From Trueperaceae bacterium (GTDB lineage: Bacteria; Deinococcota; Deinococci; Deinococcales; Trueperaceae), in assembly GCA_034521815.1 (NCBI GenBank), contig JAXHLW010000001.1, positions 96,001 to 160,000 on the forward strand: a stretch of DNA of 64,000 nucleotides, read 5' to 3'. Each line of letters opens with the position of its first letter. The first letter of the stretch is position 1. The position numbers and the translations under genes were made by a program. Positions 23,924-46,224 of this stretch are shown piece after piece. The notes under the pieces are model-generated. The model saw nothing but the letters and a program-made list of their open reading frames with translations, was not told where the DNA came from and did not search any database.

Positions 23924-25966
<2,043 letters not shown>

Positions 25967-26023
25967 GACCCTCAGGCTACGCCCGAGGGTCGGCTCGGAC
26001 CGTCAGGTGCCGTGCGAATCCCG

Positions 26024-28492
26024 TCAGTACGCCGGTCGCCAGGCGCCTCCCTGTTCGCGCACGAACGGCAGCCAGGCGATCGCGACGAGGTGCGGCGCCA
26101 CCCCGCTCGCCGGCAGGCGGATCTCGACGGTGCCGATCTCCAGCTCGGAGCCCAGCGGAGCGCGCAGCGCGTCCATCTCGTTCTCGAGCTCGGTGCTCAG
26201 CTCCTGAAGCTCCGTCTCCGCCCGCGCCAGCGCCTTGCGGGCCTCGGCGACGTCGGACGCCTCCTTCTGGACCCGTCCCGCCGAGCGCAGCGTGGTGCCG
26301 ATCTTGCTGGAGCTCGGTGCCTTGCCGCCCAGGAACCCGCTCAGCAGCGCCGAGCCGACCCGCACGACGGTATCGAGCTGGCGTTGACGCGACTGGGCCT
26401 GCTGCTGCGAGACGGCGGCCTCGGCGCGTGCCACGCGGTTCTCGACGGTGCGGACCTTGGAGGCGTAGCGCTCGCGCAGGCGCGCTTTCTCCTCGTCGCG
26501 CCGCTCGCGCTCGCGCAGCGCGGCACGCTCGCGGAACGCGGCCTCGCTCTCGCCGGGTCGCCCGACCAGGTCGGTCGCTTCGTGCGTGAACAGCCGCAGC
26601 GGCCGCTCGGCGCGCAGCCAGCGCACGAACCCCTTCTGCGCGTCCTTCAGGGCGCTGGCGCTCAGGTCGCCCGGCAGGTCGCCACCGAACGCGCCGTCTG
26701 CCGGCGCGACGTCCATCAGGTCGTCCAGCGACAGCGGCACGTCGCGACCCGCCGCCCAGTCCACCGGTGCCGCGCCCATCGGCACGTCGGCGATCCGGAC
26801 CACGGTCTCGTGATGCTCGACCGGGGGCCGCTTGCGACTCCACGACAGGCCCGCCGCGGCCAGCAGGTGCGGCAGCCAGGTGGTGCTGGCGCCCTCCGGC
26901 GCGCGCGACGGCGCGAAGAACTCGGGCACGTCGTGCGGGAGCATCGGCCTGCGCGACGACGCTGGAGCCCCGCTCGCGGAGGTCGCCACCGCCGCCGCGC
27001 CGGCCCCGTGGGGAGCCGTGGCGCCGGCAGCGGGCGCCCCGCCCGCCGTGGCGCGGGCGTCGGCGAGCTCGTTCCGGATCGGATGGTCGGCCATCAGCCG
27101 CTCGATCTGCGGCCGCGCCAGCGGCCCGGCCAGGTAGCTCATCACCCAGCGCGTCCGCATCAGCCGGGGCGCACGCTCGTGCACGCTGTGGAGCAGGAAG
27201 GTGCGCTTGTCGAGCCCGGCCAGCCGCTGCCCCAGCTCGCGGGTGTCGACGCCCGCCGAGGAGTCCGCCCGGCTGAGCCCCGACAGCACGCGGTCCCGGT
27301 CCTGCTCGGTCTGCAGCCGCCCCAGGAACCAGGTGCCGGCGTTCGACAGCGCCTTGTAGTCCAGGTCGACCGGGTTCTGCGTCGACAGCACCACGCCGAT
27401 CCCGAACGCCCGCGCCTGCTTCAGCAGCGTCAGGAGCGGCGTCTTGCTGGGCGGATTCGCGGTCGGCGGCAGGTAGCCGAACACCTCGTCGAGGTAGATC
27501 AGGGCGCGCAAGGTCCCGGTGCCGCTCTGCCCCCGCATCCAGGCGATCATCTCGTTCAGGACCAGCGTCGTCGCGAACATCCGCTCGGCATCGGACAGAT
27601 GCGCCGTCGTGATCACGCTGGTGCGCGGGCGACCGTCGGGCGCGGTCAACAGCGCCTCGGCCGCCAGCGGCGTGCCCTGCAGCCAGGGCGCGAACGACGG
27701 CGCGGCGACCAGCGCGTTCAGCTTGCGGGCGAAGGCGGCCCGGTCGCGGACGGGAAGCACGGCGTCGACGCCGAGAACCCCGATCCGATCGAACGGCGGC
27801 GACTGCACCAGCGGGATCAGCTCCTCGAGCGACAGGTCCCGCCCGGCCCGCCACTGGTGGGCCAGCAGCGTGCTGAGCAGCAGGTGCTCGGGACTGGTCA
27901 GCGGATCCGCCGCTTCGCCGGTCAGGCCCAACAGGCCGTCGACCGTGCCTTGCACCCGCTCGGCCAGCGCCTCGGGGTCGTTCCGGACGGCAGCGCCGGG
28001 CGCGGCCAGCGACCTGAGCACGTTCAGCGGCTGGCCGGCGGTCGAGCCGGGGGTGAACACCACCACCTCCCGCGCGGCGTTCAGCCGCCGCACCCGCTCC
28101 GGGGTCTGGCCCCACGACGCCATCCCCTCCCGCCAGGTAGCCGCCGTGGCCTGGGCCGTCTCCGCCGCCGTCGCGCCGCTCCGCCTGGCCTCGACCGGAT
28201 CGACCCACGGCTCCAGGTCGTCACCGCTGGGCTCGGGGAACGCCAGCGCCAGGTTCGTGAGGTCGCCCTTCGGATCGATCGCGACGACCGGAATCCCGTC
28301 CAGTGCGGCCTCTTCGAGCAGGCCGACGCCAAGCCCCGTCTTGCCGCTACCGGTCATGCCGATGATCACCGCGTGCGTGGTCAGGTCGGCGGCGTCCAGC
28401 AGGACCGGTCGTGCGGCGTCGTCGCCGTCCGGCCCCGCCTCGCGACCGAGGAAGAACTCGCCGACGCGCTCTGGAAGGATGGAGTCGCTCAT
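26024..28492 (-). CDS. HerA/FtsK-superfamily ATPase (DUF87/DUF853-like) with coiled-coil C-terminus
   Basis: THAVIIGMTGSGKT Walker A, IYLDEVFG Walker B, KQARAFG, STQNPVDLDYK. TACGAT -10 box 7 nt before ATG 28492. Confidence 0.82.
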   Translation of the reverse strand: MSDSILPERVGEFFLGREAGPDGDDAARPVLLDAADLTTHAVIIGMTGSGKTGLGVGLLEEAALDGIPVVAIDPKGDLTNLALAFPEPSGDDLEPWVDPVEARRSGATAAETAQATAATWREGMASWGQTPERVRRLNAAREVVVFTPGSTAGQPLNVLRSLAAPGAAVRNDPEALAERVQGTVDGLLGLTGEAADPLTSPEHLLLSTLLAHQWRAGRDLSLEELIPLVQSPPFDRIGVLGVDAVLPVRDRAAFARKLNALVAAPSFAPWLQGTPLAAEALLTAPDGRPRTSVITTAHLSDAERMFATTLVLNEMIAWMRGQSGTGTLRALIYLDEVFGYLPPTANPPSKTPLLTLLKQARAFGIGVVLSTQNPVDLDYKALSNAGTWFLGRLQTEQDRDRVLSGLSRADSSAGVDTRELGQRLAGLDKRTFLLHSVHERAPRLMRTRWVMSYLAGPLARPQIERLMADHPIRNELADARATAGGAPAAGATAPHGAGAAAVATSASGAPASSRRPMLPHDVPEFFAPSRAPEGASTTWLPHLLAAAGLSWSRKRPPVEHHETVVRIADVPMGAAPVDWAAGRDVPLSLDDLMDVAPADGAFGGDLPGDLSASALKDAQKGFVRWLRAERPLRLFTHEATDLVGRPGESEAAFRERAALRERERRDEEKARLRERYASKVRTVENRVARAEAAVSQQQAQSRQRQLDTVVRVGSALLSGFLGGKAPSSSKIGTTLRSAGRVQKEASDVAEARKALARAETELQELSTELENEMDALRAPLGSELEIGTVEIRLPASGVAPHLVAIAWLPFVREQGGAWRPAY

Positions 28493-28583
28493 GGGCGCCA
28501 TCGTACTCGGCGGTGCTACCGTGCAGCACGATGATGAACGCCTGCGAACGCCGCCCTCGCACGACCGTCTCGCGAGGCTCGCG

Positions 28584-31427
28584 GTGAAGACCTTCTACCT
28601 TCTCGACGGCCACGCTCAGATCTTCCGTGCCTACTACGCGCCGTTCCGGGAGCTCACCACGCCCGACGGGCGCAACGTCAAGGCCGCCTACGTGTTCACC
28701 CAGCTCGTCGTCAGCCTGCTGAACAAGGATCCCGACTTCTTCGCCGTCGCGTTCGACGTCAGCGACGAGACGACGTTCCGCAAGGACGAGTTCGACGCGT
28801 ACAAGGAGCATCGCGACAAGGCGCCCGAGGATCTCGGCACCCAGATGGTCATGGTGCGCGAGATCCTGGACCGGATGGGCGTCGTCACGCTGGAGCGCGA
28901 GGGGTTCGAGGCGGACGACCTGATCGCCACCATCGCCGCGGGGCTGCCGGACGACGTCGAGATGCGCATCGTCAGCAAGGACAAGGACCTGCACCAGATC
29001 TTGAACGACCGCGTCGCTCTGTACGACCCGAAGGACGGCTCGCTGCTTCGCGGCCCCGACCTGCTCGAGGCCAAGGGCTACACGCCCGAGCAGGCGGTCG
29101 AGGTCCAGACGCTGGTCGGCGACCCGACCGACAACATCCCCGGCGTCCCCGGCATCGGCGTCAAGACCGCCGCCAAGCTGATCCACCAGTACGGCACCGC
29201 CGACGCGGTGCTGGAGCACGCCGACGAGCAGACGCCCAAGCGCCGCGAGAACCTGCTGGCCTCGGCGCAGCTGCTGCCGGTGACGCGTCGGCTGGTGACG
29301 CTCCGCGACGACGTGCCGCTGAGTTTCGAGCTCGAGGCGTGCCGCACGCCGCGGCCGCGGCGCGACGACGTCCAGGACGTGTTCGAGGCGTTGGGCTTCC
29401 GGACGCTCCTGGAGCAGCTGGCCGGATCGGACGCGACCCGCCGGTCGTCCGGCAGCGCGTCCGGCAGCGCGTCCGGCAGCGCGTCCGGTAGCGCGTCCGG
29501 TAGCGCCTCGAGCAGCGCGTCCGGGTCTGCGGACGGTGGGCTGTTCCCCTCAGAGGGCGGTGCAGAGGGCGGTGACGAGCCCCACGACGCTCCGCAGGCG
29601 GAGCACCTGCGCGACGCCGACTACCGCGTGGTCACCGAGCTGGCCGAGCTCGAGGCGCTGGTCCAGAGCGTCGACGGGGCGCCCGCGGTCGCGATCGACA
29701 CCGAGACCACCAGCCTGCGCGCGCACGACGCGGAGATGATCGGGATCTCGCTGGCGATCCGACCGGGCGCAGCCTGGTACGTCCCGGTGCGCTGCCACGA
29801 GCGTGAGGTGCTCGCCACCGACACGGTCCTGAAGGCGCTCGCGCCGCTGCTCGAGAGCGAGCGGGTCGTCAAGGTCGGCCAGAACCTGAAGTACGACCTG
29901 CAGGTGCTCTGGAACGCGGGGGCCCGGGTCGAGGGTCCGATCTTCGACACCATGATCGTTGCCGCCCTGCTCCGGCCCGAGCGGCGCGGGAACGGCCTGG
30001 ACGCCCTCGCCAAGGACCTGCTGGGGATCGACCTGATCCCGACGTCGGAGCTGATCGGCAAGGGCAAGAACCAGAAGACGATGCTGGACGTGCCGTTGGA
30101 CCGTCTCGCCGAGTACGCCGCCGAGGACGCCGACGCCACCTGGCGTCTCTACCAGCTGCTTCGCGGCGAGCTGGACCAGGCGCCGGCCGATCTGCGGCGA
30201 CTGGCCGAAGAGGTCGAGCTCCCGCTGGTCCGCGTGCTGGCCCGGATGGAGGGACGCGGCGTCAAGCTGGATCTGGACCTGCTGGCCGAGACGGCGGAGC
30301 GCCTCGAGGCCCGCATCGCGCAGCTCCGCACCGAGATCCAGGTCGCGGCCGGTCGGGAGTTCAACCCCGACAGCCCGGCGCAGCTGGGCGAGGTGCTGTT
30401 CGACCACCTGGGCATGCGCGTCGTCAAGCGCACGAAGACCAGCCGCAGCACCGACGCCAGCGTGCTCGAGACGCTGGCCGCCGAGACCGAGCACCCGCTG
30501 CCGGCCCTGGTGCTCGAGTACCGCGAGCTGACCAAGCTGCTGGGCACGTACGTCGCGCCGCTGCCCGGCTACGTGAGCCCTCGCGACGGACGACTGCACG
30601 CCAGCTTCCACCAGGTCGGGGCCGCCACCGGCCGGCTATCGAGCTCGGATCCCAACATCCAGAACATCCCGGTCCGGACCGAGACCGGCCGCCTGATCCG
30701 GCGCGCGTTCACCGCCAGCGCGCCCGATAGGCGCCTGCTGACGGCCGACTACAGCCAGGTCGAGCTGCGGATGCTGGCCCACCTCTCGGGCGACGCCGAG
30801 ATGACGCGGGCGTTCGAGGCGGGGCTGGACATTCACGCCTTCGTGGCCAGTCAGGTGTACTCGATCGAGCTGGCCGAGGTCACGCCCGAGCAGCGCCGGG
30901 TCGCCAAGACCGTGAACTTCGGCATCGTGTACGGCCAGACCGCGTTCGGCCTGGCCCGCACGCTGCGCATCCCGCAGGGGGACGCCGCCGCGTTCATCGA
31001 GGCGTACAAGGAGCGGTACCGCGGGATCGACCGCTTCCTGGCCCAGTGCATCGCGTTCGCCGAGGAGCACGGCTACGTCGCCACGATCCTCGGGCGTCGC
31101 AGGCCGGTGTCCGAGATCCGGAGCCGCAACCGCAACATGCGCTCGCTGGGCGAGCGGCTCGCGATCAACACCGTCGTGCAGGGCAGCGCCGCCGACCTGA
31201 TCAAGCTCGCGATGCGCAACCTGGACGCGAGGCTGCGCGCTCCGGGCGCCCCCGACGCGCACATGATCATCCAGGTGCACGACGAGCTGGTGTTCGACGT
31301 CGCCGAGAAGGACGGCGAGGTCGCGAAGGAGGTCGTGCGCGACGAGATGATCGGCGCCATGAAGCTCGACGTGCCGCTGGCGGTCGACGCGGCGCTGGGT
31401 CGCGACTGGGCGTCGACCAAGGGCTGA
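28584..31427 (+). CDS. polA: DNA polymerase I (5' nuclease, 3'-5' exonuclease and polymerase domains)
   Basis: LLDGH, EADDLIAT, GDPTDNIPGVPGIG, Exo motifs DTETT/NLKYD/YAAED, DYSQVELR, KTVNFGIVYG, QVHDEL. Alternative start GTG 28521. Confidence 0.96.
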   Translation: MKTFYLLDGHAQIFRAYYAPFRELTTPDGRNVKAAYVFTQLVVSLLNKDPDFFAVAFDVSDETTFRKDEFDAYKEHRDKAPEDLGTQMVMVREILDRMGVVTLEREGFEADDLIATIAAGLPDDVEMRIVSKDKDLHQILNDRVALYDPKDGSLLRGPDLLEAKGYTPEQAVEVQTLVGDPTDNIPGVPGIGVKTAAKLIHQYGTADAVLEHADEQTPKRRENLLASAQLLPVTRRLVTLRDDVPLSFELEACRTPRPRRDDVQDVFEALGFRTLLEQLAGSDATRRSSGSASGSASGSASGSASGSASSSASGSADGGLFPSEGGAEGGDEPHDAPQAEHLRDADYRVVTELAELEALVQSVDGAPAVAIDTETTSLRAHDAEMIGISLAIRPGAAWYVPVRCHEREVLATDTVLKALAPLLESERVVKVGQNLKYDLQVLWNAGARVEGPIFDTMIVAALLRPERRGNGLDALAKDLLGIDLIPTSELIGKGKNQKTMLDVPLDRLAEYAAEDADATWRLYQLLRGELDQAPADLRRLAEEVELPLVRVLARMEGRGVKLDLDLLAETAERLEARIAQLRTEIQVAAGREFNPDSPAQLGEVLFDHLGMRVVKRTKTSRSTDASVLETLAAETEHPLPALVLEYRELTKLLGTYVAPLPGYVSPRDGRLHASFHQVGAATGRLSSSDPNIQNIPVRTETGRLIRRAFTASAPDRRLLTADYSQVELRMLAHLSGDAEMTRAFEAGLDIHAFVASQVYSIELAEVTPEQRRVAKTVNFGIVYGQTAFGLARTLRIPQGDAAAFIEAYKERYRGIDRFLAQCIAFAEEHGYVATILGRRRPVSEIRSRNRNMRSLGERLAINTVVQGSAADLIKLAMRNLDARLRAPGAPDAHMIIQVHDELVFDVAEKDGEVAKEVVRDEMIGAMKLDVPLAVDAALGRDWASTKG
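29448..29531 (+). repeat. In-frame 12-bp tandem repeat x7 (SGSA linker) in polA
   Basis: tccggcagcgcg units between the 5' nuclease and exonuclease domains. Confidence 0.85.
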
Positions 31428-31488
31428 GGAGAGTAAAGCCCAGCGCGACCGGCTGCGCGAGACGATTCGAGCGAAAGGAGTCGCGAGC

Positions 31489-32184
31489 ATGTGCGGACGA
31501 TACGGACTGTTCCACGAGGCCGGCGAGATCGCCGAGGCGTTCGGCGCGGACATCGCGCGCCTCGATCCGCCCCTCTCGCCGCGCTACAACGTCGCGCCGA
31601 CGCAGCAGGCGGTCGTCATCGTGCCGTCCGGCGACGCAGGTCCGGTCGCGATCACCGCCCGCTGGGGCCTGATCCCGCACTGGGCCAAGGATCCGTCCTC
31701 GTTCAAGGCGACGCTCGTGAACGCTCGCTCCGAGACGGCGCACGAGAAGCCGTCGTTTCGCGACGCGATGAAGCGGGACCGCTGTCTGGTTCCCGCCAGC
31801 GGCTTCTACGAGTGGCACGCCGAGGAGCCGGGCGCCGCCAAGCAGCCGTACTGGATCCGCCGCCGGGACGGCCGGCCGATGGCGCTGGCCGGCCTGCACG
31901 CGCGCAACGAGCGAGCCGATCCCGCCGACAGCTTCACCATCCTGACGACCCGTCCCAACGCGCTGATGGAGCGTCTCCACGACCGGCAGCCGGTGATCGT
32001 GCCCGTCGGCGCGATCCGGCTCTGGTTCGATCCGGAGCGTGGCGACGCCGCCTCGCTGTCCGACCTGATGGAGCCCAACGACCCGGCCGAGCTCGAGGCG
32101 ATCCCGATCGGGACGGCCGTGAACCGTCCCGGCAACGAGGGGCCCGAGCTGCTGGAGCCGCACGGGGAGGCGCTGCGGGTCTAG
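31489..32184 (+). CDS. SOS response-associated peptidase (SRAP; YedK/HMCES family, abasic-site shielding)
   Basis: N-terminal MCGRY, YNVAPTQ, WGLIPHW, NARSET, FYEW, HDRQPVI. Confidence 0.94.
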   Translation: MCGRYGLFHEAGEIAEAFGADIARLDPPLSPRYNVAPTQQAVVIVPSGDAGPVAITARWGLIPHWAKDPSSFKATLVNARSETAHEKPSFRDAMKRDRCLVPASGFYEWHAEEPGAAKQPYWIRRRDGRPMALAGLHARNERADPADSFTILTTRPNALMERLHDRQPVIVPVGAIRLWFDPERGDAASLSDLMEPNDPAELEAIPIGTAVNRPGNEGPELLEPHGEALRV

Positions 32185-32195
32185 CGCCCGGCTCT

Positions 32196-32251
32196 CGTCG
32201 CGAAACCCGCGTCGCGACACCCGCGTCGCTACACCCGCGTCGCTACACACC
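32196..32251. repeat. Intergenic tandem repeat 4 x 14 bp (CGTCGCKACACCCG) directly upstream of uvrC
   Basis: cgtcgcgaaacccg cgtcgcgacacccg cgtcgctacacccg cgtcgctacacacc. Confidence 0.85.
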
Positions 32252-32280
32252 TCGGCTTCGGCCGCGGCGACAATGACGCC

Positions 32281-34089
<1,809 letters not shown>

Positions 34090-34094
34090 GCGGC

Positions 34095-36635
34095 GTGGAC
34101 GCAGGCGTGGACGCAGCCGTTCCGTTCGGCCGAGGCGCGCACGATCCCGACCGAGCGGTCGACGCAGCTCGCAGGCGGCTGTCGGAGCTGGGCAGCGAGA
34201 CGGTGGCGGCACGCTCGCTGCCGCCGCGCGAGGGAAGCTTCGCGCCGCTTCCCAGCGACCTCCCGCGTCCGCTGGCGTCGGCGCTGGCGGAGGCGGGGAT
34301 CGAGAGGCTGTACCTGCACCAGCGGGCGGCCATCGACGCCGTTCGGGCGGGCGACGACGTGCTCCTCACGACCGGCACCGCCAGCGGCAAGAGCCTCGCC
34401 TATCAGCTTCCGATCGTGGCCGGCCAGCTGGCCGATCCGGCCGCGACCGCGTTGGCGTTGTTCCCCACCAAGGCGCTGGCGCACGACCAGGCGGACGGCT
34501 TCGCGCGGCTGGCGTCGGACGCCGGGCTGCCCGCCGGCACGGTCGCCGACTACGACGGCGACACCCAGACCCACCGCCGGCCCGGGATCCGGGCCGAGGC
34601 GCGGACGCTGCTCACGAATCCCGACATGCTGCACGCCGCGATCCTGCCGCACCACACCCTTTGGCGACGGTTCCTGACCGGGCTTCGCTGGATCGTGGTG
34701 GACGAGGTGCACGTCTACCGCGGCGTGTTCGGCGGGCACCTCGCCGGGGTGCTGCGGCGCCTGGTCCGGGTCGCGCGCCACTACGGCGCCGACCCGCGCG
34801 TGATCGCCACCAGCGCCACGCTGGGCAACCCGGTCGAGCACGCACGGCGGGTGCTGGGCCGCGACGTCGTCCATATCGACCGGGACGCCGCGCCCCGCGG
34901 GCCGCGCGAGGTGCTGCTGGTGCGCCCGCCGCTGGTCGACGAGGCGCTGGGGCTTCGCCGTCCGGCGTTGGCCGAGGCCGCCTCGTTGGCCGGACGGCTG
35001 GCGGAGGACGGCCTGCAGGTCCTGGTGTTCGCCGGCTCGCGTCAGGGGGCCGAGGAGGCGGTGGTGCAGCTGCGGGGCCGGACGAGCGGCGTCCGGACCT
35101 ACCGAAGCGGCCTGCTGGCCGGCGAGCGGCGCCTCATCGAGCGGGAGCTGCGCGACGGCGTGGCGCGCGTGGTCGTGGCGACCAGCGCGCTGGAGCTGGG
35201 CATCGACGTGGGCGGCGTGGACGCCGTCGTGATCGCGGGCTACCCGGGGTCGGCGGCGGCGTTCTGGCAGCAGATCGGCCGGGCGGGCCGGCGCGGCAGG
35301 CCCGGCCTGGGCGTGCTGGTGCTGGCGGGCGGGCCGTTGGATCAGTACCTCGCTCGGCACCCTGAGCACCTGTTCGGCGCCGCGCCCGAGCGTGCGCTGA
35401 GCGATCCCGACCACCTCCTGCTGGCGCTCGATCATCTGCGCTGCGCGGCGTTCGAGCTGCCGATCGAGCCGGACGAGCGCTTCGGCGGCTACGGACCGGA
35501 GGAGATCGCGGCGCTGGGCCAGCAGATGCGGGCCGACGGCGAGGCGCACGTCGCGGGCGGGCGGATCTACTGGCTGGGGGATCGCTACCCGGCGGAGGGC
35601 GTGTCGCTCCGCTCGGCCGGGCGCGACGAGGTCGCGTTGCTGGCGGACGGGGTCGCGATCGGCACGATCGATGCGCCCAGCGCCCGCTGGATGGTGCACC
35701 CGGGGGCGGTGTACCTGCACGACGGTCGCCCTCACCTGGTCGAGGAGCTGGACCTGGCCGAGCGGGTCGCCCGGCTGCGTCCGACCGACGATGCCGTGCT
35801 GACGCGCGCCAACCGGGAGACGCGGATCGATCCGGTCGGTCGGCCCGACGCCCGGGCCGTGCGCGGCGCGACGGTGCTGACGGGCGAGGTGACCGTCACC
35901 GAGCGCGTGACCGGCTACCGCAGGATGCGGCGCGTGACGCGCGAGACGCTGGGCCGGTTTCCGTTGGTGCTGGAGCCGTCGCGTCTGCGGACGCGGGCGT
36001 ACGCGTTCGCCCCGGACGAGGCCACGGTCGGGCGTCTGCGCGCCGCGGGCGCGTGGAGCAACGACGCCAACGACTACGGTCCCGACTGGCCCAGGCGGCG
36101 CGCGGCCGCGCTGGCGCGCGACGGCCACGCCTGCCGGGTGTGCGGCACCAAGGCGACGTCGGGGACGCGGCTGCACGTTCACCACGTCGTGCCGTTCCGA
36201 GCGTTCGCGAGCGCGCGCGAGGCCAACCGGGCGGACAACCTCGCCACGCTCTGCCCGTCGTGCCACCGCCGTGCCGAGCAGGGCGTCAGGGTGCGGAGCG
36301 GCCTCGCAGCGGTGGCGTACGCGATGCGGTCGCTGGCGCCGTTGCGGGTGCTGTGCGACGCCCGCGATCTGGGCGTGCACGCCGATCCGAGCAGCGCCGT
36401 GGCGGACGGCGGACCGGCGCTGCTGATCTACGAGACGGTGCCGGGGGGCGTGGGGCTGACCGACGAGCTGGCGCGGCGCCATGACGAGCTGGTGGCGGCC
36501 GCGTTGGAGCTGGTCGCCGGCTGCGGCTGCGAGGACGGCTGCCCCGCCTGCGTGGGGCCGGCCGGCGAGCCGGGGCACGCGGGCAAGCCCGAGGCGATCG
36601 CGGTCCTGACGGCGCTGACGGGGAACGACGCGTGA
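34095..36635 (+). CDS. DEAD/DEAH-box helicase with DUF1998 (MrfA/YprA/Hrq1 family) and an inserted HNH nuclease domain
   Basis: LYLHQ, TGTASGKSL, TNPDMLH, DEVH, SAT, TSALELGIDVG, QIGRAGRR; C-terminal LCD...CGCEDGCPAC. Start GTG 34095 or 34107, 5 nt after the uvrC stop. Confidence 0.9.
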   Translation: MDAGVDAAVPFGRGAHDPDRAVDAARRRLSELGSETVAARSLPPREGSFAPLPSDLPRPLASALAEAGIERLYLHQRAAIDAVRAGDDVLLTTGTASGKSLAYQLPIVAGQLADPAATALALFPTKALAHDQADGFARLASDAGLPAGTVADYDGDTQTHRRPGIRAEARTLLTNPDMLHAAILPHHTLWRRFLTGLRWIVVDEVHVYRGVFGGHLAGVLRRLVRVARHYGADPRVIATSATLGNPVEHARRVLGRDVVHIDRDAAPRGPREVLLVRPPLVDEALGLRRPALAEAASLAGRLAEDGLQVLVFAGSRQGAEEAVVQLRGRTSGVRTYRSGLLAGERRLIERELRDGVARVVVATSALELGIDVGGVDAVVIAGYPGSAAAFWQQIGRAGRRGRPGLGVLVLAGGPLDQYLARHPEHLFGAAPERALSDPDHLLLALDHLRCAAFELPIEPDERFGGYGPEEIAALGQQMRADGEAHVAGGRIYWLGDRYPAEGVSLRSAGRDEVALLADGVAIGTIDAPSARWMVHPGAVYLHDGRPHLVEELDLAERVARLRPTDDAVLTRANRETRIDPVGRPDARAVRGATVLTGEVTVTERVTGYRRMRRVTRETLGRFPLVLEPSRLRTRAYAFAPDEATVGRLRAAGAWSNDANDYGPDWPRRRAAALARDGHACRVCGTKATSGTRLHVHHVVPFRAFASAREANRADNLATLCPSCHRRAEQGVRVRSGLAAVAYAMRSLAPLRVLCDARDLGVHADPSSAVADGGPALLIYETVPGGVGLTDELARRHDELVAAALELVAGCGCEDGCPACVGPAGEPGHAGKPEAIAVLTALTGNDA

Positions 36636-37879
36636 GCGATCTGCTGGATCGTCTGCGGGCGCTTCGCGGCGACGCGCCGGCAGACGACGCCGCTCCGGAG
36701 CTCCCTGCGGCCGATCCGGGCTGGGAGGGCGTCGCCGCGCAGCTGGACGCCGCGTCGGTGGTGGTCGAGAACGGGGTGCACCTGGTGCGACGGGCCCGGC
36801 TGGAGCGGGGATCCGTCCACGGTCGGTCGCCGATCGGTGGGGACGGTCTCCACCCCTGGCTCGGCCGCTGGGCGTCCAAAGGCGCCGGTGCGCCAAGGAC
36901 CGTACGCGCGCCCTCGCCGACGGCTCGGACCGCTCCCGCCAAGGTCGTCTACCTGGATACCGAGACGACCGGCCTGGCGGGGGGAACGGGGACGTACGCG
37001 TTCCTGGTGGGCGTCGGGACGCACGACGCGGACGGGTTCCTGGTCGAGCAGCTGTTCCTGCCCGGTCCGGAGCACGAGCGCGCCTACCTGACCGCGCTGT
37101 CGGAACGACTCGCGGGCGCGTCGGCGGTGGTGAGCTACAACGGCGCGAGCTTCGACCTGCCGCTGGTGCGCACGCGCTTCGCGATGCACGGGCTCGCCGA
37201 TCCTCTGGAGGGCGTGCCGCACCTGGACCTGCTTCCCCTGGCCCGGAGGCTGTGGCGCCGAAGCCTGCCGGACTGCACCCTTGGAACGGTGGAGCGCGAG
37301 GTGCTCGGGGTGCGACGGAGCATCCGGGACGTCCCCGGCGCCGAGGTGCCGGCGCGCTACCTGGCGTTCCTGAGGTCTCGCGACGCGCGCCCGCTACGCG
37401 GCGTGCTGGAGCACAACCTGGACGACATCGTCGCGCTGACTGCGATGCGGTCGCGGATCGAGGCGATGCTCACCGTCCGGCTCGCACCGTCGGCGCCGTC
37501 GCGACCCGGGCCGGCTGCCGACCCGTTGGAGCTCCACGGGCTGGGCCGCTGGCTGGAGGCGATCGGCGAGCTGGACGCCGCGCTGGCGCACTACCACGCG
37601 GCCGAGACGCAGCTTGCGGACGCCGCCTGGGACGTGGCGCGATTGCTGCGGCGGGCCGGCCGGCATGGCGAGGCGGCCGCCCGCTGGAGCCGCCTGGCGG
37701 CCGGCGGCGACGCCCGGGCGTGGATCGAGCTGGCCAAGTACCGCGAGCACCGCCTGGGCGACGTCGACGGAGCTCTCGACGCGCTCGAGGCCGGGCGGCG
37801 TTGCGGCGGAGCGCGACACGACGACCTCGAGCGACGCCGGGCACGGCTGCTGTCGCGGAGGGCGCGAGAGCGCGGCTGA
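36632..37879 (+). CDS. RNase H-like DEDDh exonuclease with TPR-like C-terminus (MrfB/YprB family)
   Basis: YLDTETTGL, SYNGASFDLP, HLDLL, HNLDDI; GTGA overlap with the helicase stop. Confidence 0.88.
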   Translation: MSDLLDRLRALRGDAPADDAAPELPAADPGWEGVAAQLDAASVVVENGVHLVRRARLERGSVHGRSPIGGDGLHPWLGRWASKGAGAPRTVRAPSPTARTAPAKVVYLDTETTGLAGGTGTYAFLVGVGTHDADGFLVEQLFLPGPEHERAYLTALSERLAGASAVVSYNGASFDLPLVRTRFAMHGLADPLEGVPHLDLLPLARRLWRRSLPDCTLGTVEREVLGVRRSIRDVPGAEVPARYLAFLRSRDARPLRGVLEHNLDDIVALTAMRSRIEAMLTVRLAPSAPSRPGPAADPLELHGLGRWLEAIGELDAALAHYHAAETQLADAAWDVARLLRRAGRHGEAAARWSRLAAGGDARAWIELAKYREHRLGDVDGALDALEAGRRCGGARHDDLERRRARLLSRRARERG

Positions 37880-37897
37880 TCGGCGGGTGTCCGAGGT

Positions 37898-38545
37898 TCA
37901 GTCGTCGCCCGACGCTGCGCCGCGCGCCCCGTCCGTTCCGGCCCCCGACCTGAAGCGACCGCCGCAGCCCTTGTGCCGATAGGCGGCCGGGGGATGCTTG
38001 GGTCTGCGGTAAAGGCCGACCTCGGCGCCACAGCGTGCGCACACGAGCACGTGGGGCGCCGGCACCAGCGGCCCGGCCCGACAGGTCGCCTCCGGCCGAG
38101 CCCCGATCTCGCGCGCCACCGCCCGCCACAACGGACCGTGGTTCATCGCCGCGCGCCCGTGGCGGACGTAGGCGACCGCGTGGGCGATCTCGTGAAGCAG
38201 GGTGTCGCGGACCATCTCGGGCGTGCCGTCCGTCACCAGGTGCCGACTGATGCGGATCGTCCCCGTGGCCGCGCCCGCCCGGACGCGGGTCGTTCCCAGC
38301 GTCCGTTTCCCCCGTCCGAAGCCGAAGGCCCAGTCGTCGAGCCCGTGGCGGAGCATGCGCTCCGCCGCGTCCGCCTCGACGGTGGCGAACGCGGACGGCG
38401 TGGGGCGCGGGCGCAGCAGCCAGACCTTTCCGCGTTCGTCCTCGACGAGGTGGGACGCCGTTCGGCCGCGCGTGGCGTCGTCGGGGGGACGAACGGCGCC
38501 GAGGAGGCGCTGCGCGTGAGCGTGTCGGGACCGGGCGTGGCTCAT
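37898..38545 (-). CDS. SprT-like zinc metalloprotease
   Basis: TLLHEIAHA, HGPLW, C-terminal CxxC...HxxC zinc ribbon. TAGCCT -10 box 7 nt before ATG 38545. Confidence 0.85.
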   Translation of the reverse strand: MSHARSRHAHAQRLLGAVRPPDDATRGRTASHLVEDERGKVWLLRPRPTPSAFATVEADAAERMLRHGLDDWAFGFGRGKRTLGTTRVRAGAATGTIRISRHLVTDGTPEMVRDTLLHEIAHAVAYVRHGRAAMNHGPLWRAVAREIGARPEATCRAGPLVPAPHVLVCARCGAEVGLYRRPKHPPAAYRHKGCGGRFRSGAGTDGARGAASGDD

Positions 38546-38725
38546 GGCTCGAAGGCTACCGCGCGTCGTCGTACGGGCGCGCGGCCATGGGGTGGTCGTG
38601 CCGAGCGTCAGCACGGCTCGGGCCCGGCGCTCGTGAACGCGTGCCGCGACGAGACTGGCTCACGACCCGGAACGGAAACCCGGCCGCCGCACGCGTCTAT
38701 ACTCGGCCCACACGGAGGAGGACCG

Positions 38726-39613
38726 ATGGATCACGACCGAGACGAGCTCGAGGCCGCCGCGAGGCGGCTCGAGGCGCATCCCGACTACCGCGTCCAACGC
38801 AGGCTGCCCGACGATCCGTGCAGCGAGGAGGCCGGACCGGTGTTCCGGCGCGGCCTGTACGTCGACGTGGAGACGACCGGCATCGACGCGGGCAGGGAGA
38901 AGATCATCGAGCTGGCCATGGTCCTGTTCGGCTACGACGCCGAGGGTCGCATCACCGGCGTCGAGGCTCGGTTCGACCAGCTCGAGGACCCCGGTCGGCC
39001 GATTCCGCCCGAGATCGTCGAGCTCACCGGCATTTCGGACGAGGACGTCCGTGGACGCCGCATCGACGAGGGCGAGGTCGCCGAGCTGGTCCGCCGGGCC
39101 GACCTGATCGTCGCGCACAACGCCGGGTTCGACCGAGCGTTCCTCGAGAAGAGGATCGGCGTCTTCGCCGAGCAGCCGTGGGCGTGCAGCGCGCAGGACG
39201 TTCCTTGGCGCTACGAGGGGATGGAGAGCCGCAAGCTCGAGTTCCTCGCCTATCGGTCGGGCGTCTTCTACGACGGCCACAGAGCGATCGCGGACTGCCT
39301 GGCGGGCGTGTACGTGCTGGCGCGCCCCTTGCCGCGAAGCGGCGTGACCGGCATGGCGAAGCTGCTCGAGTCCGCGCGCCGTAGCGACGTGCTGTTCAGG
39401 GCCGTGGGCGCTCCGTTCTCGACCAAGGACGTGCTCAAGGCGCGTGGCTATCGTTGGCGGCCCGACGCCAAGGTGTGGTGGAAGCAGGTTCCCGAGGCGG
39501 ACGCCGATGCCGAGCGCGCCTGGCTGGCGAGCGACGTGTACGGCGGGAACGTCAGTCGCGCCACCGAAGCGGTCGTGACGGCGTACGAGCGCTACTCGTC
39601 CCGAGGGTCGTAA
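38726..39613 (+). CDS. DnaQ-like 3'-5' exonuclease (DEDDh)
   Basis: VDVETTG, AHNAGFDR, HRAIADC; GGAGGAGG RBS. Confidence 0.9.
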   Translation: MDHDRDELEAAARRLEAHPDYRVQRRLPDDPCSEEAGPVFRRGLYVDVETTGIDAGREKIIELAMVLFGYDAEGRITGVEARFDQLEDPGRPIPPEIVELTGISDEDVRGRRIDEGEVAELVRRADLIVAHNAGFDRAFLEKRIGVFAEQPWACSAQDVPWRYEGMESRKLEFLAYRSGVFYDGHRAIADCLAGVYVLARPLPRSGVTGMAKLLESARRSDVLFRAVGAPFSTKDVLKARGYRWRPDAKVWWKQVPEADADAERAWLASDVYGGNVSRATEAVVTAYERYSSRGS

Positions 39614-39750
39614 GGCTCCAGCCCGGCCCTCGCACGCCGAAGCACGCGCGCGTCCGAAGACCGTGCGCGCGTCTGCCACGCGGTCCCGGCGTGCGCAGCG
39701 TCCCCAGTGTGATACTCTTCTCAAAACCCCGCGCTAGCTGGGAGGTCGTC

Positions 39751-41166
39751 ATGGACGAAGGCAACGTCCGGCCGCATGCCGGACAGCAGGGAGACGGAAC
39801 CGTACACCGTGTCGGCCTGACGCGGCACTGCATCGCCTCCGGCGTCGTCCAGCTACCCTTCGCCCTCAGGGACACTCTTCCTGAGGGCGAGCTCTTGGCG
39901 CTGGACGTCGAGCGGGACGAAGCCGTCGTGCTCGAGGTCGTACCGCCTCGTGCGCTGTCCGGTCTCGCCGACTTCTTCGAGGCCCACGATCTGCAGGTGA
40001 ACGATCGGCTCGAGATCCGCATCCGTGGCCGCGACCTGGGCGAGGTGCGGCTCGTCGCGGTTCGCAGCGCTCGCCGCCCGACCAGGAGCGAGGACCGTCG
40101 GCTCGGAGCCGACGATCGTGCGGCGGAGCCCAGCAGCGAGCCATCATCCCCGTCCGCCGACTCCCCGAGCGGCTCGGCTGTCCGTGACGACGTGCCCTCG
40201 TCGGTGTCGCGGCCGGGACCGTCGCCGCTGCCCGACACATCGGTCCAGGACGCCCTGGATCACGGCGACTGGTCCTCTGCGCGTGCGTCCTCGGATGGAC
40301 CGGACGTCGTCGAGACGATCGGCAGCGTGACGGTCCGGCGCCTCGGCGCGGGCCGGTTCGCCGCTCCGGCCCCCACCACCCTCGCGCGACGGGCCGAGGA
40401 TCTGGAGGCCGAAGCACCGTCCACGCGCGATGCCCGGCTGGGCGTCAGCGGCCGGACCGACGCCGTGGCCGACACGAGCGCCGACGCGGCCGCCGAAGAG
40501 TCCCCCGGCGAGCCGCTGGACGCGCCTGTCGAGACGCGAACCGAGCCGACCGAGCCGGCCGAGCCGACCGAGCCGACCGACCGACCGACCGGCCGAGCCG
40601 GCCGAGCCGGCCGACGCGGAGCTCGATGACCTGCTGGTCGTGGACGACGCCCAGACGCCGACGCTCGACGGCGCCGTACGACAGCCCAGCCTGTTCGCTC
40701 CGCGAGACGGTGTGCGCCCACCGTTCCGCCCGCCGGCACGACCTCGACCCGCTCCCGATCCTGCGGCGAGCTCTCCTGCGGCGAGTCCACCTGCGGCGAG
40801 TCCTCCGACGACGAGTACTCCGCGGCGAGTACTCCCGCGGCCCGCCCGCGGCCGGAGGCCGTTCAGCTGAGCGAGAGCGACCTCGCCGATCCCGATGTCG
40901 TCGCGACCGTCCGGCAGCGCGCGCGCGAAGAGGAGCTCAGCCGCGCCGGCGACCTGCGCAGCCGGGTCGTGCGCTGGCTGTTGGCACCCACCACGCCCGT
41001 GATCGTGCCGATCGAGCGTGTGCAGCACGCGTTCGATCTTCCGGTCGACGTCGCGCGCGACGTGGTCGACGGCGTTCTCGAGGAGCCGCCTCCCAGCCTG
41101 CGCCTGACGCGCCTGCGCGAAGACCTGCTTCGGGTCTCGCGCGTCACCGTCGAGCACGACGCCTGA
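39751..41166 (+). CDS. Hypothetical protein with a long low-complexity linker, interrupted by two compensating frameshifts
   Basis: Globular N-terminus (MDEGNV...) and C-terminus (...DLRSRVVRWLLAPTTP...) share one frame; segment ~40580-40825 reads sensibly only in another frame; the shifts fall in 9-bp and 15-bp tandem repeats. Confidence 0.55.
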
Positions 41167-41185
41167 GCCGAGACGCTGGGCCGCC

Positions 41186-44100
41186 CTACGCCAGCCAGTC
41201 CGACGCCAGCCAGCCCGACTCCAGCCAGGCCGCGAGCGTCGTGGCGGAGGCTCCCGAATGAGCAGCACGGTCGTCGCGCCGGCCTTCGCGCGACGCTTCG
41301 TGCAGGGCGTGCTCGACGGCCAGCACCCGCTCGGCGGGCGTGGACGCCGGTCGCGGATCCAGGTAGCCGTGCTCGCGTAGCCAGGCCGCCAGCGCTTCGC
41401 GGGCGTCGTCCCGGAACCGCTTGACCTCGCCTCGCGCCAGGGCGGCCAGCAGTGCCTCCGCATCCCCGGACGACGCGTCCGCGATCTCGGCGACGCGGTC
41501 CAGGAACGCCGCGCTCACGGCGTCGCTGGCGGCCAGTGCGGCGCGGTCCACGGCACGTCCGCGACCGATGCGCCAGCGGCGCGACCAGGCGCGCGTCGCC
41601 GTCACCCGCGCGCCGAGGAGCTCGAGGTCGGCGGTGCCGAGGAGGCGTTCCGCCTGAGGGCCGTCCGCCAGGAGCGACGACAGCGCACCGATCGTCACGA
41701 TCCTGAGTCGCACCAGGGCGTGCACCAGGTCCAGCCGGTCGTGCAGCAGGTGAAGCGGATGGATCCGCTCCGGTCGCCACGGATCCACGGGCGGTACGCC
41801 CAGCACCGACGCGTAGCCCACGGCGTCCAATCCGTTCGGAGCCGGCGGCTCGCGCCACGCCGGGGGGCGCGCCCCGAGCGTCGGCGTCGTTTCCTGGCGG
41901 CCCCGAATCTCGGCCAGGTCCAGGACGGTGGGCGCCTCGATCCGGCCTTCCGACCGATCGGCCAGCTCGCGCCACAGCACCGCATCGTCCCGGCGAGCGC
42001 TGAGGTAGAGGACCTGCCGGCCCTCGTCGCGCGTCAGCGTGGTGAGCGCCTCTGCCACGGCAGCGAACCGTCCGACGTCGCTGGTCGTCAGCGCCTCGTC
42101 CAGCACCAGCGGCAGCGACGGACCGCCCTGCTCCGCCTCGAGCGCATGGGCCAGCCGGAGAGCCAGCAGGAGCTGTGCCTTCGTTCCGCTGGATAGCTCG
42201 TCCAGGGCGCGCTTGCGACCGTCCGTGCGACCGTCCGTGCGATCCACGGCGTGCACGCGCTCGGCGCCGTCTGCCGTGGTATCGAACGCCAGGGCGAAGG
42301 CGTGATGCGTGAACCGAGCGAACCAGGTCTCGGCCCGCTGGAGCGCGGCGGGCCTGCGCTCGCTGCGAAACGCGTGCTCGAGATGATCGAGCACGGCTGC
42401 GGCCGCTTCGCCGTCCAGCACCTGCTCGTACGCGTGCTCGAGCGCGTCGTGAGCTTGGCGCTCGACCTGACGCGCTGCGGTCAGGTCCCGCTCGCGGCGG
42501 GCGCGCGCCAGCCGCTCGTCGATGGCGGCGATCGCCCCGGTGGCCTCGTCGGCACGGTCGGCGGCCGCTAGCGCCTCGTCCAAGGCGTGACGAAGAGCGG
42601 TCTCGTCGCCTGCCTCGACCTGGGCACGAACGCCCGCGTCCGCGTCGACGATGGCCAGGTGGTGATCGAGAACGCCCTCCAGCCGGATGCGCTCGTCGCG
42701 CAGGCGTCGCCAGTCGGGCAGGCGGTCGGCGCGACGCCGGAGCTCGCGCATGGCGTCCGCGGGGTCGTGCTGGACCTGGTCCAGCGGTCGGTCCGACATG
42801 GCGGCCAGCAGCTCGTCGCGGCGGGCCCGTACCCGATCGAGCTCTTCATGGGCCCGGGCACGGGCGCGATCGGCCGCCTCGCGCCGGGCGGCGGCCTGGT
42901 CGCGCCGACGGACGCGCTCCGCCAGCTGGGCCAGGCGTGCCCGTACCGTCGCCGAGGCCGGCACGGTCGCCGGCGTCGGCTCGTCACCGTGCGCACGCAG
43001 GATCTCCGCCAGGCCGGCCGCACGCAGCTCGGTGTCGAGCCTCGAGCGGGCCTGCTGCAGGTGAGCGATCGCTGCGGCCTCGGCCTGGCGTGCGCCGCGC
43101 AGCGACTGGCCCGCCTCGCGCAGCTCGGCGGCGCGGCGCGCTCGCTCCAGCGCGGATCGCCCCGCCTCGCCTGCGTGCAGGCCGGCGCGTGCGGCACGAT
43201 CCGCGAGCTGACGCTCCAGACGATCCGAGCGGATCTCGGCTTCCTCGAGCTCGGCGTGAAGCTGGACGCGTCGGGCCGAGCGGATGGCCTCGGCCTCCCG
43301 CGCGTGCCGGGCCTCGGCCGCGTCGCTCGCGGCCTGGGCCAGACGGGCGCGAACCGCGGCGCGGGTCCAGACCGTGGGCGGCTCGGCGACCGCGTCCGCG
43401 AACGAGGTCCGCGCCTCCCGCCTCGCTCGCCGGGCACGGTGCCTCTCCGCAGCCGCTCCGGCGTCCAGCACGACACCCACCGCAGCCGACGCGCCCGCCA
43501 GGATCAGCAGTCGTGCGGCGCGGCTGGACAGGTCCAGCGCATCGAGCGAGAGCCAGGCCGCGCCCGCAGCGCCGACGACGGCGGCGAGGTAGGCGACGGA
43601 GCGCGCGCGGCGCCGCCACCGTCCACGGGCGTCGGGCGTCGCCAGCCAGTCGCTGAGCAGGTCCACGGCCCGGTGGGCGCGGTCCGGGTCGACCGACGGC
43701 TCGGGCGAAGGCGGTATCTCCCGCAGCGCGAGCCGCGCCACACGAGCCTCGCTTCGCGCCCTCTGGGCCTCGTCCGCGATCGCATCGAGCTCGTCCAGCT
43801 CCAGCGGCGTCGGTCCCACGACCGCGCCCAAGGGGTCGGGTCCCGACGCTTCCTGCAACGCGGCCACCCGGCCGGCCCGCTCGGCGGCGTGCCGCTCTGC
43901 GTCGCGGACCGTTCGTTCCGCGTCGGCCAGCGCCTCGGCGGCGGCCTGCCACGACGCGACCTGCGCGGCGTCGGGCCGACCGTCCTCGAGACCGGTCGCG
44001 GCCTTCTGGGCGTCGGCCGCGTCGAGCTCGGCCTCCTGCCGGCCCACCTCGCTCACCGCCCGGTCGACGGCGTCTGCGAGAGCGTCGGCGTCCTGAACGA

Positions 44101-44806
44101 CGCCTTCGTGCAGCCCGTCCAGCCCGGCGGGGTACGTCCTGGCGCGCGCCTCGACGGACGCGAGCGCCCGCCGGGTCGCGAGCACGTCCAGCGCGGAGCG
44201 CAGCAGGGGAGCCGAGGCCGCCTGCGCTTGCGCACGCCCACGGCGCTCCTCCCAGTGAACGAGCTCCTGCTCGTCGGCCGCGAGAGCGTCCCGCTGCCTG
44301 CGCACCTTGCCCAGCGCTTCGCGGGCGCGCTCCAGCTCGCTTCGCAGCGGGGAGCCGTAGCGCGGACCCAGGCCGGCCAGCTCGCTCCGGGCGCGAGGAA
44401 GATCGACGCCGCCGGCCAGCTCGCTGGCCAGCCGGTCGGCGATCCTCAGGTCGGCACGTCCGAACCGGTGCAGGTCCTCGAGGTTCAAGAACAGCCCGTC
44501 CAGCAGGTGGCCGGCAGGCAGGGGCGGGGGATCTGCCGGCTCGCCGTCCCGCTCCCAGCGCACGGCGTCCCCGACCCGGGTCGCTCGCCATACCTGGCCG
44601 TCCCGGTCGTCGAAACGAGCCTCGACGTGCGCCCCTGCGCCACGCGAGGCCTCCGGGTCGACCAGGGTGCGGACGGCGTGGACCAGACGGCTCTTGCCCG
44701 ACGCGTTCGGTCCGACCACGAGGTTCGTCCCTGGCGCGAATCCACGCACCACGAACGGCTCGTCGACGCCCGGAAGCGCGTGGACGCGCAGCTCGACCAG
44801 CCTCAT
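41186..44806 (-). CDS. SMC/Rad50-like AAA ATPase (YhaN/SbcC-like) with long coiled coil
   Basis: GPNASGKS Walker A, LSSGTKAQL signature, LVLDEAL Walker B; central hydrophobic segment typical of YhaN. Confidence 0.85.
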   Translation of the reverse strand: MRLVELRVHALPGVDEPFVVRGFAPGTNLVVGPNASGKSRLVHAVRTLVDPEASRGAGAHVEARFDDRDGQVWRATRVGDAVRWERDGEPADPPPLPAGHLLDGLFLNLEDLHRFGRADLRIADRLASELAGGVDLPRARSELAGLGPRYGSPLRSELERAREALGKVRRQRDALAADEQELVHWEERRGRAQAQAASAPLLRSALDVLATRRALASVEARARTYPAGLDGLHEGVVQDADALADAVDRAVSEVGRQEAELDAADAQKAATGLEDGRPDAAQVASWQAAAEALADAERTVRDAERHAAERAGRVAALQEASGPDPLGAVVGPTPLELDELDAIADEAQRARSEARVARLALREIPPSPEPSVDPDRAHRAVDLLSDWLATPDARGRWRRRARSVAYLAAVVGAAGAAWLSLDALDLSSRAARLLILAGASAAVGVVLDAGAAAERHRARRARREARTSFADAVAEPPTVWTRAAVRARLAQAASDAAEARHAREAEAIRSARRVQLHAELEEAEIRSDRLERQLADRAARAGLHAGEAGRSALERARRAAELREAGQSLRGARQAEAAAIAHLQQARSRLDTELRAAGLAEILRAHGDEPTPATVPASATVRARLAQLAERVRRRDQAAARREAADRARARAHEELDRVRARRDELLAAMSDRPLDQVQHDPADAMRELRRRADRLPDWRRLRDERIRLEGVLDHHLAIVDADAGVRAQVEAGDETALRHALDEALAAADRADEATGAIAAIDERLARARRERDLTAARQVERQAHDALEHAYEQVLDGEAAAAVLDHLEHAFRSERRPAALQRAETWFARFTHHAFALAFDTTADGAERVHAVDRTDGRTDGRKRALDELSSGTKAQLLLALRLAHALEAEQGGPSLPLVLDEALTTSDVGRFAAVAEALTTLTRDEGRQVLYLSARRDDAVLWRELADRSEGRIEAPTVLDLAEIRGRQETTPTLGARPPAWREPPAPNGLDAVGYASVLGVPPVDPWRPERIHPLHLLHDRLDLVHALVRLRIVTIGALSSLLADGPQAERLLGTADLELLGARVTATRAWSRRWRIGRGRAVDRAALAASDAVSAAFLDRVAEIADASSGDAEALLAALARGEVKRFRDDAREALAAWLREHGYLDPRPASTPAERVLAVEHALHEASREGRRDDRAAHSGASATTLAAWLESGWLASDWLA

Positions 44807-46139: not shown

Positions 46140-46189
46140 CGACGCCCCGAGGCTACCGCGTGCGCGACGCGTCGGAAGCAGCGCCCCTC

Positions 46190-46224
46190 GCGCCACCGGG
46201 ATCCTGGCGCCACCGGGATCCTGG
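46190..46224. repeat. Perfect 17-bp direct repeat x2 (GCGCCACCGGGATCCTG), intergenic
   Basis: Read directly; lies upstream of the yhaO-like gene. Confidence 0.8.

Follow-up and report, generated by a model that had tools for sequence, protein, structure and literature searches.

A gene lying between uvrC and an mrfB-like exonuclease gene of a Trueperaceae bacterium (Deinococcota; assembly GCA_034521815.1, contig JAXHLW010000001.1, positions 96,001 to 160,000; this stretch of 64,000 nucleotides is referred to as the window) encodes a helicase of the MrfA/YprA family that carries, according to sequence and model comparisons, a complete HNH domain within its own polypeptide chain. On balance, the protein is probably a bifunctional enzyme in which an MrfA-type 3'-to-5' helicase and an HNH nuclease together provide a helicase-coupled nick for excision repair; the nuclease activity, its coupling to ATP or to translocation, the choice of strand and cutting site, and the class of lesion are properties that we infer from sequence and predicted structure. 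The MrfAB pathway is the sole route described in bacteria by which mitomycin C adducts are excised independently of UvrABC, and its model includes neither a lesion-recognition nor an incision step. A natural and widespread MrfA variant that is strongly conserved and has its nuclease placed at the funnel through which DNA enters would thus be a concrete candidate for the incision, and would extend to bacteria the motor-plus-HNH repair enzymes that are so far known from ZRANB3. Even if the HNH domain proves to be inert or to serve in defence, the variant would still correct the view that YprA helicases of the repair branch are free of inserted nucleases.

An MrfA-type helicase with an inserted HNH domain

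The gene product is an MrfA-type superfamily 2 (SF2) helicase with the overall fold of B. subtilis MrfA/YprA, an assignment already made in a first-pass annotation of this DNA and supported here by sequence comparison, Pfam domains (Table 1) and structure prediction. Its best solved relative is the B. subtilis protein (6ZNP, E 5e-154), with which it shares the domain order NTR, RecA1, RecA2, WH, OB, CON, MZB as well as the Cys4 zinc site of the MZB domain and a 6ZNP-like predicted structure. An AlphaFold2 (AF2) model built with 20 relatives reached a mean predicted local distance difference test (pLDDT) value of 85.9 and a predicted template modelling score (pTM) of 0.84, shows strands at residues 512-640 in the OB/CON region, and retrieved 6znp_A as the top match in a Foldseek search of the PDB (E 1.4e-63, template modelling (TM) scores 0.69/0.77). 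The helicase motifs start at residues 94 (motif I, GTASGKS), 203 (motif II, DEVH), 240 (SAT), and 392 (motif VI, QQIGRAGRR), and K99 of the Walker A motif, D203-E204-H206, S240-A241-T242, and Q392..R399 are invariant in the alignment of full-length relatives, as are the MZB cysteines C810, C812, C816, and C819.

Alignment with 6ZNP pairs query residues 33-635 with chain residues 17-627 and query residues 737-825 with chain residues 648-735, which leaves ~100 helicase residues at a site where B. subtilis MrfA has ~20. The CON and MZB domains of MrfA are assigned to residues 557-630 and 631-749, respectively, in the accessible text of Roske et al.; the alignment break at chain residues 627-648 therefore places the insert at the CON/MZB junction. 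The first reading of the sequence had stated that B. subtilis MrfA has no endonuclease domain, which this alignment bears out, and the HNH domain at the CON/MZB junction accordingly distinguishes the window protein from its Bacillus counterpart. In an alignment of 77 helicases, the length of the corresponding segment is bimodal, with 94-111 residues in HNH-bearing proteins and 15-28 in the others. The insert consists of a lead helix, a conserved W654-x10-W665 motif, a helix at residues 665-675, and the HNH core, just past which E728 is located. Translation of 34095-36635 reproduces exactly the HNH string reported initially (W..RRRAAALARDGHACRVCG...LHVHHVVPFRAF...NRADNLATLCPSCH at residues 665-724). 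The borders originally given, 36070-36285 (residues ~659-731), correspond to the HNH core, while the full insert is wider (~36015-36302).

The domain search and structure prediction that the first-pass annotation had proposed were both carried out, and on sequence and model evidence they confirm the insert as a complete HNH domain of the beta-beta-alpha-metal type. Pfam HNH (PF01844) matches residues 680-727 with an E value of 3.2e-9 (37.2 bits, cut-off 21.4). A profile of 20 inserts, searched against PDB sequences, retrieved active nucleases, namely the HNH endonuclease of phage GVE2 (5H0M, E 9.6e-10), followed by IscB, a group II intron maturase, and McrA; in this search, the CxxC, HH, N, and CxxCH elements of the insert were in register with the motifs of 5H0M, IscB, and the maturase, and H696-H697, N715 (plus N711), and H724 align to their HNH motif. 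The IscB entry matched in this search is 9k2z (4.4e-7), and NF040563 is a further match to the IscB HNH domain (2e-8). Folded alone by AF2, the insert gave a pLDDT of 89.4 and a predicted beta-beta-alpha arrangement with strands at residues 694-697 and 716-719, followed by a helix that starts at residue 721. The matches of this model in a fold search of the PDB were nearly all HNH nucleases, at moderate TM scores of 0.4-0.6, with 5h0m as the sole match at or below an E value of 0.001 (3.7e-4) among 319 at or below 10; the further ones include McrA, Cap5, Cas5-HNH, Cas9 HNH, the Gme nicking HNH, and the ZRANB3 HNH. As Pfam, the PDB sequence profile, and the fold search agree independently, the HNH call is beyond chance. 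The GVE2 protein and free-standing HNH proteins of the homing type are the best matches in both sequence and fold, and share the layout W..R..RD..CxxC / HH / N / CxxCH with the insert; they differ in being small stand-alone proteins of mobile elements. The GVE2 HNH enzyme nicks DNA.

An intein or another selfish in-frame element was considered and rejected on the grounds of missing splicing blocks, a single origin, and conservation at the level of the host gene: the insert is a bare HNH domain without flanking Hint splicing blocks, and no Hint or intein family was present among the Pfam matches of the helicase at E <= 0.01.

Conservation, distribution and origin of the insert

The putative nuclease residues appear to be under strong constraint, as judged from sequence conservation. 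C680, C683, H696, H697, N715, C720, C723, H724, and E728 are invariant in all 20 full-length relatives compared (45-77 % identity), and the counterparts of the HNH residues are likewise invariant in 20/20 inserts from the window and the genome loci described below. In a profile search with the insert over 1.84 billion cluster representatives, 65 of the best 150 representatives matched the whole insert, 25 of which are at least 780 aa long. The Cys4 set, N715, and H724 are kept in each of these 65, and the HH pair in 63, the two exceptions being possibly alignment offsets. With a mean pairwise identity of 0.59, the HNH core ranks highest among the regions of the protein (RecA domains 0.54-0.55, OB plus CON 0.46).

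The remaining 85 of the best 150 profile matches are proteins of 107-449 aa in which the core alone is matched. Seventeen of these were scanned, and all contained PF01844, with homing-endonuclease repeats (two proteins), NUMOD3 (two), zf-FCS/TRASH zinc fingers (four), and HTH arrays (one) as extras. It is thus conceivable that the HNH domain is a domesticated homing-endonuclease remnant, retained as a structural or DNA-binding module that is stabilised by zinc and has no catalytic function, and Cys4 zinc modules are indeed common structural insertions in YprA helicases according to the accessible part of PMC12458937. We nevertheless regard such a role as very unlikely: residues needed for catalysis only (H697, N715, H724) are as invariant across the clusters (65/65 or 63/65) as the zinc cysteines, no other region of the protein is as conserved as the HNH core, and no degenerate copies were seen. 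The sequence comparisons rather suggest a domain that resembles mobile-element HNH domains and has become fixed in the helicase. A search for short proteins with the insert yielded 13 matches, all of which are fragments of the same helicase type, and no close stand-alone donor.

The fusion is not unique to this DNA, and PF01844 and PF09369 are both present in all of the best 120 relatives from a set of 5.8 billion proteins (94-46 % identity). The few named ones among them belong to Trueperaceae (Deinococcota) or Anaerolineae/Anaerolineales and are annotated just as 'DEAD/DEAH box helicase'. The survey of helicases with and without the insert, also proposed at the outset, was performed on genome loci representing the best 80 of at least 601 matches in species-representative genomes, with no Trueperaceae among the 80. 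The insert is present in 20 of these loci (all with Chloroflexota-type names), absent from 54, and cut off before the site in six, a fraction that is not a prevalence, given that the loci were ranked by similarity to the query.

A tree of the 77 helicases, computed with the insert columns excluded (quick search, LG+G4, no outgroup, with composition warnings that include the window protein), explains the presence of the insert by one change on a branch with a Shimodaira-Hasegawa approximate likelihood-ratio test (SH-aLRT) support of 89. Hence, the insert appears from the sequences to have arisen once. The window helicase and five Trueperaceae-like proteins form one group (support 100) that is nested among Chloroflexota, beside the helicases of loci L038 and L025 (supports 92-94).

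A cluster representative of 775 aa (P0150) combines HNH (204-249), MZB (264-343), and an MrfB-type RNase_H_2 exonuclease (465-632) in one chain and looks, from its domain order, like an N-terminally cut HNH-MrfA::MrfB fusion.

Proposed role in excision repair

Structural work on B. subtilis MrfA offers a framework for the location of the HNH domain. In the accessible text of Roske et al. (2021), RecA2, OB, CON, and MZB form a funnel with a width of at least 24 Å for entry of the loading strand, and this funnel holds the 5' part of the strand, that is, the side toward which the 3'-to-5' motor moves; the displaced strand is proposed to leave by a positive channel between MZB and RecA2, and the canopy is described to shift substantially upon DNA binding. 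By analogy, an insert at the CON/MZB junction would place the HNH domain at the front of the motor, close to both the displaced strand and the junction of the duplex.

In the proposed sequence of events, the motor would load onto damaged DNA, and the HNH domain would nick one strand near the junction or the stall site, which would either create a 3'-OH entry point or free the damaged segment. In the Trueperaceae bacterium, MrfB as the translationally coupled exonuclease may then digest the unwound strand in 3'-to-5' direction, with PolA filling the resulting gap. The HNH domain would thereby contribute the incision step that is absent from the published MrfAB model, which, in the accessible portions of the Burby and Simmons preprint and of Manthei et al. 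(2024), consists of unwinding and 3'-5' degradation without incision. These same portions refer to unknown partners, and the part of a 2026 review that is available (PMC13705206) states that 'at least one other factor ... is still unknown' in the pathway. A supply of the incision by the HNH domain fits this acknowledged gap.

No description of an HNH domain inside MrfA-branch helicases was found in the full-text literature, a search that left subscription-only papers and the supplements of the Burby preprint outside its reach. The term HNH does not occur in Roske et al., and the accessible part of the His-Me finger classification (PMC5714182) makes no mention of DUF1998.

Gene neighbourhood of the helicase

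In the window, the helicase gene is tightly packed between its neighbours, as first reported. The TGA stop codon of uvrC (34087-34089) and the GTG start at 34095 are separated by 5 nt, and the helicase gene overlaps mrfB by 4 nt, with stop and start in GTGA (36632-36635). The helicase frame is open upstream as far as 32421, and the start at ~34095 was chosen from the N-termini of homologues. UvrC is matched by TIGR00194 with an E value of 1.2e-159 (532.6 bits, cut-off 285) and has a complete Pfam domain set of GIY-YIG, UVR, RNase H-like endonuclease, and HhH. The overlapping gene encodes an MrfB-like DEDDh exonuclease as originally described (8UN9, E 5.6e-30; PF13482, E 1.2e-34), and its DEDDh set is complete: D109, E111, D175, H261, and D265 correspond to D107, E109, D172, H258, and D262 of B. 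subtilis MrfB and are invariant in 23/23 aligned sequences. At its C-terminus, TPR_14 scores 20.1 bits, below the cut-off of 23.5, and the region aligns with other MrfBs. Presumably, the helicase is co-transcribed with uvrC. A scan of 26000-39500 gave no promoter-like sites and three terminator-like sites (2.0 expected), none of which lies on the + strand from polA to mrfB, a result that is uninformative for an organism of non-sigma-70 type. The G+C content of the window is ~73 %. An overlapping DEDDh mrfB gene downstream is also found in B. subtilis, while the position of the pair directly after uvrC in a repair island and the absence of an adjacent mrfB from most HNH-bearing relatives set the window system and its kin apart.

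The survey of DUF1998 helicases and their neighbours was likewise performed, with mrfB and UvrC scored, and it contributes to a number of observations that weigh against a helicase-coupled nick for excision repair. Adjacent mrfB genes were found in just 4 of 17 HNH-bearing loci as compared to 34 of 50 HNH-less loci, and UvrC (phmmer E <= 1e-5) was encoded within ±7 kb of the helicase in none of the 80 loci. Furthermore, the B. subtilis MrfAB pathway functions without an HNH domain, so that the insert is dispensable for the basic function of the family; in other parts of the YprA family, fused nucleases serve as defence effectors according to the accessible part of PMC12458937; and among free-standing proteins, the HNH core is most closely related to the homing-endonuclease-like ones described above. 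The proposed coupling to uvrC is thus local to the window, with its tight and overlapping junctions, as judged from 80 other loci with no Trueperaceae among them. With mrfB adjacent in 4/17 loci, a fixed unit of nicking and subsequent resection by MrfB does not fit, and the self-contained unwind-nick-resect machine envisaged at first does not represent the general case. Given the single origin of the insert, the contrast in mrfB adjacency represents one evolutionary event and not a statistical association.

Adjacency was scored where the helicase was complete and was followed by 1300 nt or more of sequence. Under this filter, 3 of 15 HNH-bearing loci have an adjacent mrfB; the count of 17 adds L006 (masked stretch, mrfB present) and L042 (frameshifted, no mrfB). 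Six C-terminally cut loci, five with short downstream sequence (L015, L023, L064, L034, L043), and the split genes of L027 and L036 were excluded. Among HNH-less loci, mrfB occurs anywhere in the locus in 39/50, and in those from Chloroflexota it is adjacent in four of five evaluable cases. In L006, a masked run of N (1671-1761, 91 nt) lies inside the helicase gene, and in L042 (6863-9525) the HNH helicase is split over two overlapping open reading frames (ORFs), by a frameshift or an assembly error.

A tentative and rather improbable extension of these findings is that HNH-MrfA acts as a self-sufficient excision enzyme in a single polypeptide, in which stalling of the motor at a bulky adduct or crosslink would license the HNH cut. 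By analogy to MrfA, movement of the MZB 'drum', by which the canopy closes on DNA, might swing the HNH domain onto the strand ahead of the stalled motor. Many Chloroflexota could then clear lesions without an adjacent MrfB and independently of UvrABC, and the Trueperaceae-like genome would have wired the enzyme into a polA-SRAP-uvrC-mrfA-mrfB operon for crosslink repair.

In a tree of MrfB sequences, the Chloroflexota MrfBs encoded beside HNH helicases (L001, L006, L025, L038) form a clade with a support of 95. The window MrfB falls outside of this clade, albeit with weak placement, and is most similar to that of L001 (42 % identity), so that a joint transfer of helicase and exonuclease, which was considered as well, is not supported. 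Locus L049, labelled as Bathyarchaeia archaeon, has a helicase and an MrfB near-identical in tree position to those of L026 (Limnocylindria, Chloroflexota; branches 0.09-0.16), which suggests mis-binning or a very recent transfer. Directly upstream of the HNH helicase and on the same strand, genes for a Zn_peptidase_2 protein (L005, L017, L032, L042) and for an LPG_synthase_TM membrane protein (L007, L014, L017, L032, L042) were observed, a synteny that recurs in one Anaerolineales subclade.

Comparison with other motor and HNH systems

Human ZRANB3 (AH2) likewise unites a DNA motor and an HNH domain in one polypeptide for genome maintenance. In the accessible parts of PMC5714182 and PMC5481773, its HNH cut is described as ATP-dependent and structure-specific, cleaving D-loop-like structures and exposing a 3'-OH. 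The two fusions are not homologous: ZRANB3 is an SNF2 annealing translocase with a C-terminal HNH domain and PCNA- and ubiquitin-binding modules, whereas the window protein is a DExH 3'-5' helicase with an inserted one. By function, however, the window protein might be a comparable processor that cuts stalled forks, D-loops, and flaps in an ATP-dependent and structure-specific manner for restart instead of adduct excision, with its link to MrfB and UvrC reflecting mere co-regulation in a damage regulon. The ZRANB3 HNH (5mkw) is found among the fold matches of the insert, mrfB and uvrC are not nearby at most HNH-bearing loci, and SbcCD-like, AddA/UvrD-like, and imuB/dnaE2 genes are present in the window, all of which would be in line with such a function. 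We still consider it unlikely, as the 5mkw match is weak (E 0.22) and the nearest characterised relative, MrfA, has an adduct-repair phenotype according to the accessible text of the Burby and Simmons preprint.

In Cas9 and IscB, an HNH domain of the same sequence group is inserted in a larger enzyme at a mobile junction and gated by conformation; these enzymes are RNA-guided, and the host domain is RuvC in contrast to the helicase canopy of the window protein. By analogy, the HNH domain in the helicase may be subject to conformational gating.

Druantia DruE and the ARMADA helicases belong to the same helicase superfamily, share the OB-CON-DUF1998 canopy, and also carry a nuclease in cis. Following the accessible part of PMC12458937, their nucleases are C-terminal PLD or Vsr/PD-(D/E)xK domains, however, and the proteins have conserved defence partners and occupy another branch of the family tree. 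Since nuclease-fused YprA-family helicases are typical of defence systems in this source, the window protein could conceivably be an anti-phage or anti-plasmid nuclease-helicase with the HNH domain as effector that degrades invading DNA. PADLOC models (BrxHI at 5.4e-46, SngC, DpdF, DruE) do match the helicase, but only over the generic core at residues ~70-410. Also, the nearest free-standing HNH relatives are of mobile-element type, and a few defence-like neighbours occur, namely a SEFIR/TIR protein (L014), PIN-MazE (L011), and DUF2779 plus ResIII (L012). The neighbours at the 19 annotated HNH-bearing Chloroflexota loci are, by contrast, varied housekeeping genes and not defence islands, no DISARM, Druantia, ARMADA, or Dpd partner genes were seen in the window or at these loci, the window context is uniformly DNA repair, and both the 6ZNP match and the 77-helicase tree assign the protein to the MrfA repair branch. 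Taken together, a defence function is quite unlikely.

The surrounding repair island

From 6740 to 53141, the window contains an unusually dense island of DNA-repair genes, the features of which are compiled in Table 1.

Table 1. Features of the repair island and of the HNH-bearing helicase, in window coordinates.
Feature	Position	Strand	Remarks
dnaE2	6740-10027	-	
imuB-like Y-family gene	10164-11660	-	
uvrB	23924-25966	-	
polA	27519..31427	+	DNA_pol_A, 5'-3' exonuclease, and 3'-5' exonuclease domains
SRAP/YedK-type peptidase	31489..32184	+	starts MCGRY; PF02586, E 1.6e-66; upstream of uvrC
uvrC	32281..34089	+	602 aa; GIY-YIG, UVR, two RNase H-like domains, HhH (Pfam); TIGR00194
HNH-bearing MrfA/YprA-family SF2 helicase	34095..36635	+	846 aa; GTG start inferred; 6ZNP match
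RecA1 + RecA2 core	34317..35297	+	Pfam DEAD 75-247, Helicase_C 303-401
Winged helix, then OB + CON (beta-rich canopy)	35403..36014	+	WHD_HRQ1 PF22982 437-508; MrfA alignment
Insert	36015..36302	+	residues ~641-736, about 80-95 aa; without counterpart in B. subtilis MrfA
HNH catalytic core (predicted)	36132..36275	+	CxxC C680/C683, H696-H697, N711, N715, CxxCH C720/C723/H724
MZB/DUF1998 zinc domain	36315..36554	+	PF09369 741-820, E 2.3e-19; C810, C812, C816, C819
mrfB-like DEDDh 3'-5' exonuclease	36632..37879	+	415 aa; helical C-terminal part; 8UN9, PF13482
SprT-like metalloprotease	37898..38614	-	PF10263, E 1.3e-12; convergent with mrfB
PRK09182-type 3'-5' exonuclease	~38660-39613	+	
SbcC-like	41186-44806	-	
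SbcD/Mre11-like	44964-46196	-	
AddA/RecB/UvrD-like helicase	50112-53141	+	

Long overlapping ORFs in 38660-41463 (39454-40629 on the + strand, 40144-41463 and 38660-39724 on the - strand) gave no Pfam or NCBIfam match. The polA ORF as listed is over-long with 1302 aa, and its Pfam domains begin at residue 359 only; either the true start is ~1 kb downstream or the protein has an N-terminal extension. The SRAP gene and uvrC are separated by a 96-nt spacer with three tandem copies of a short direct repeat (acccgcgtcgc[g/t]aca) at 32205-32250, which could be a regulatory site.

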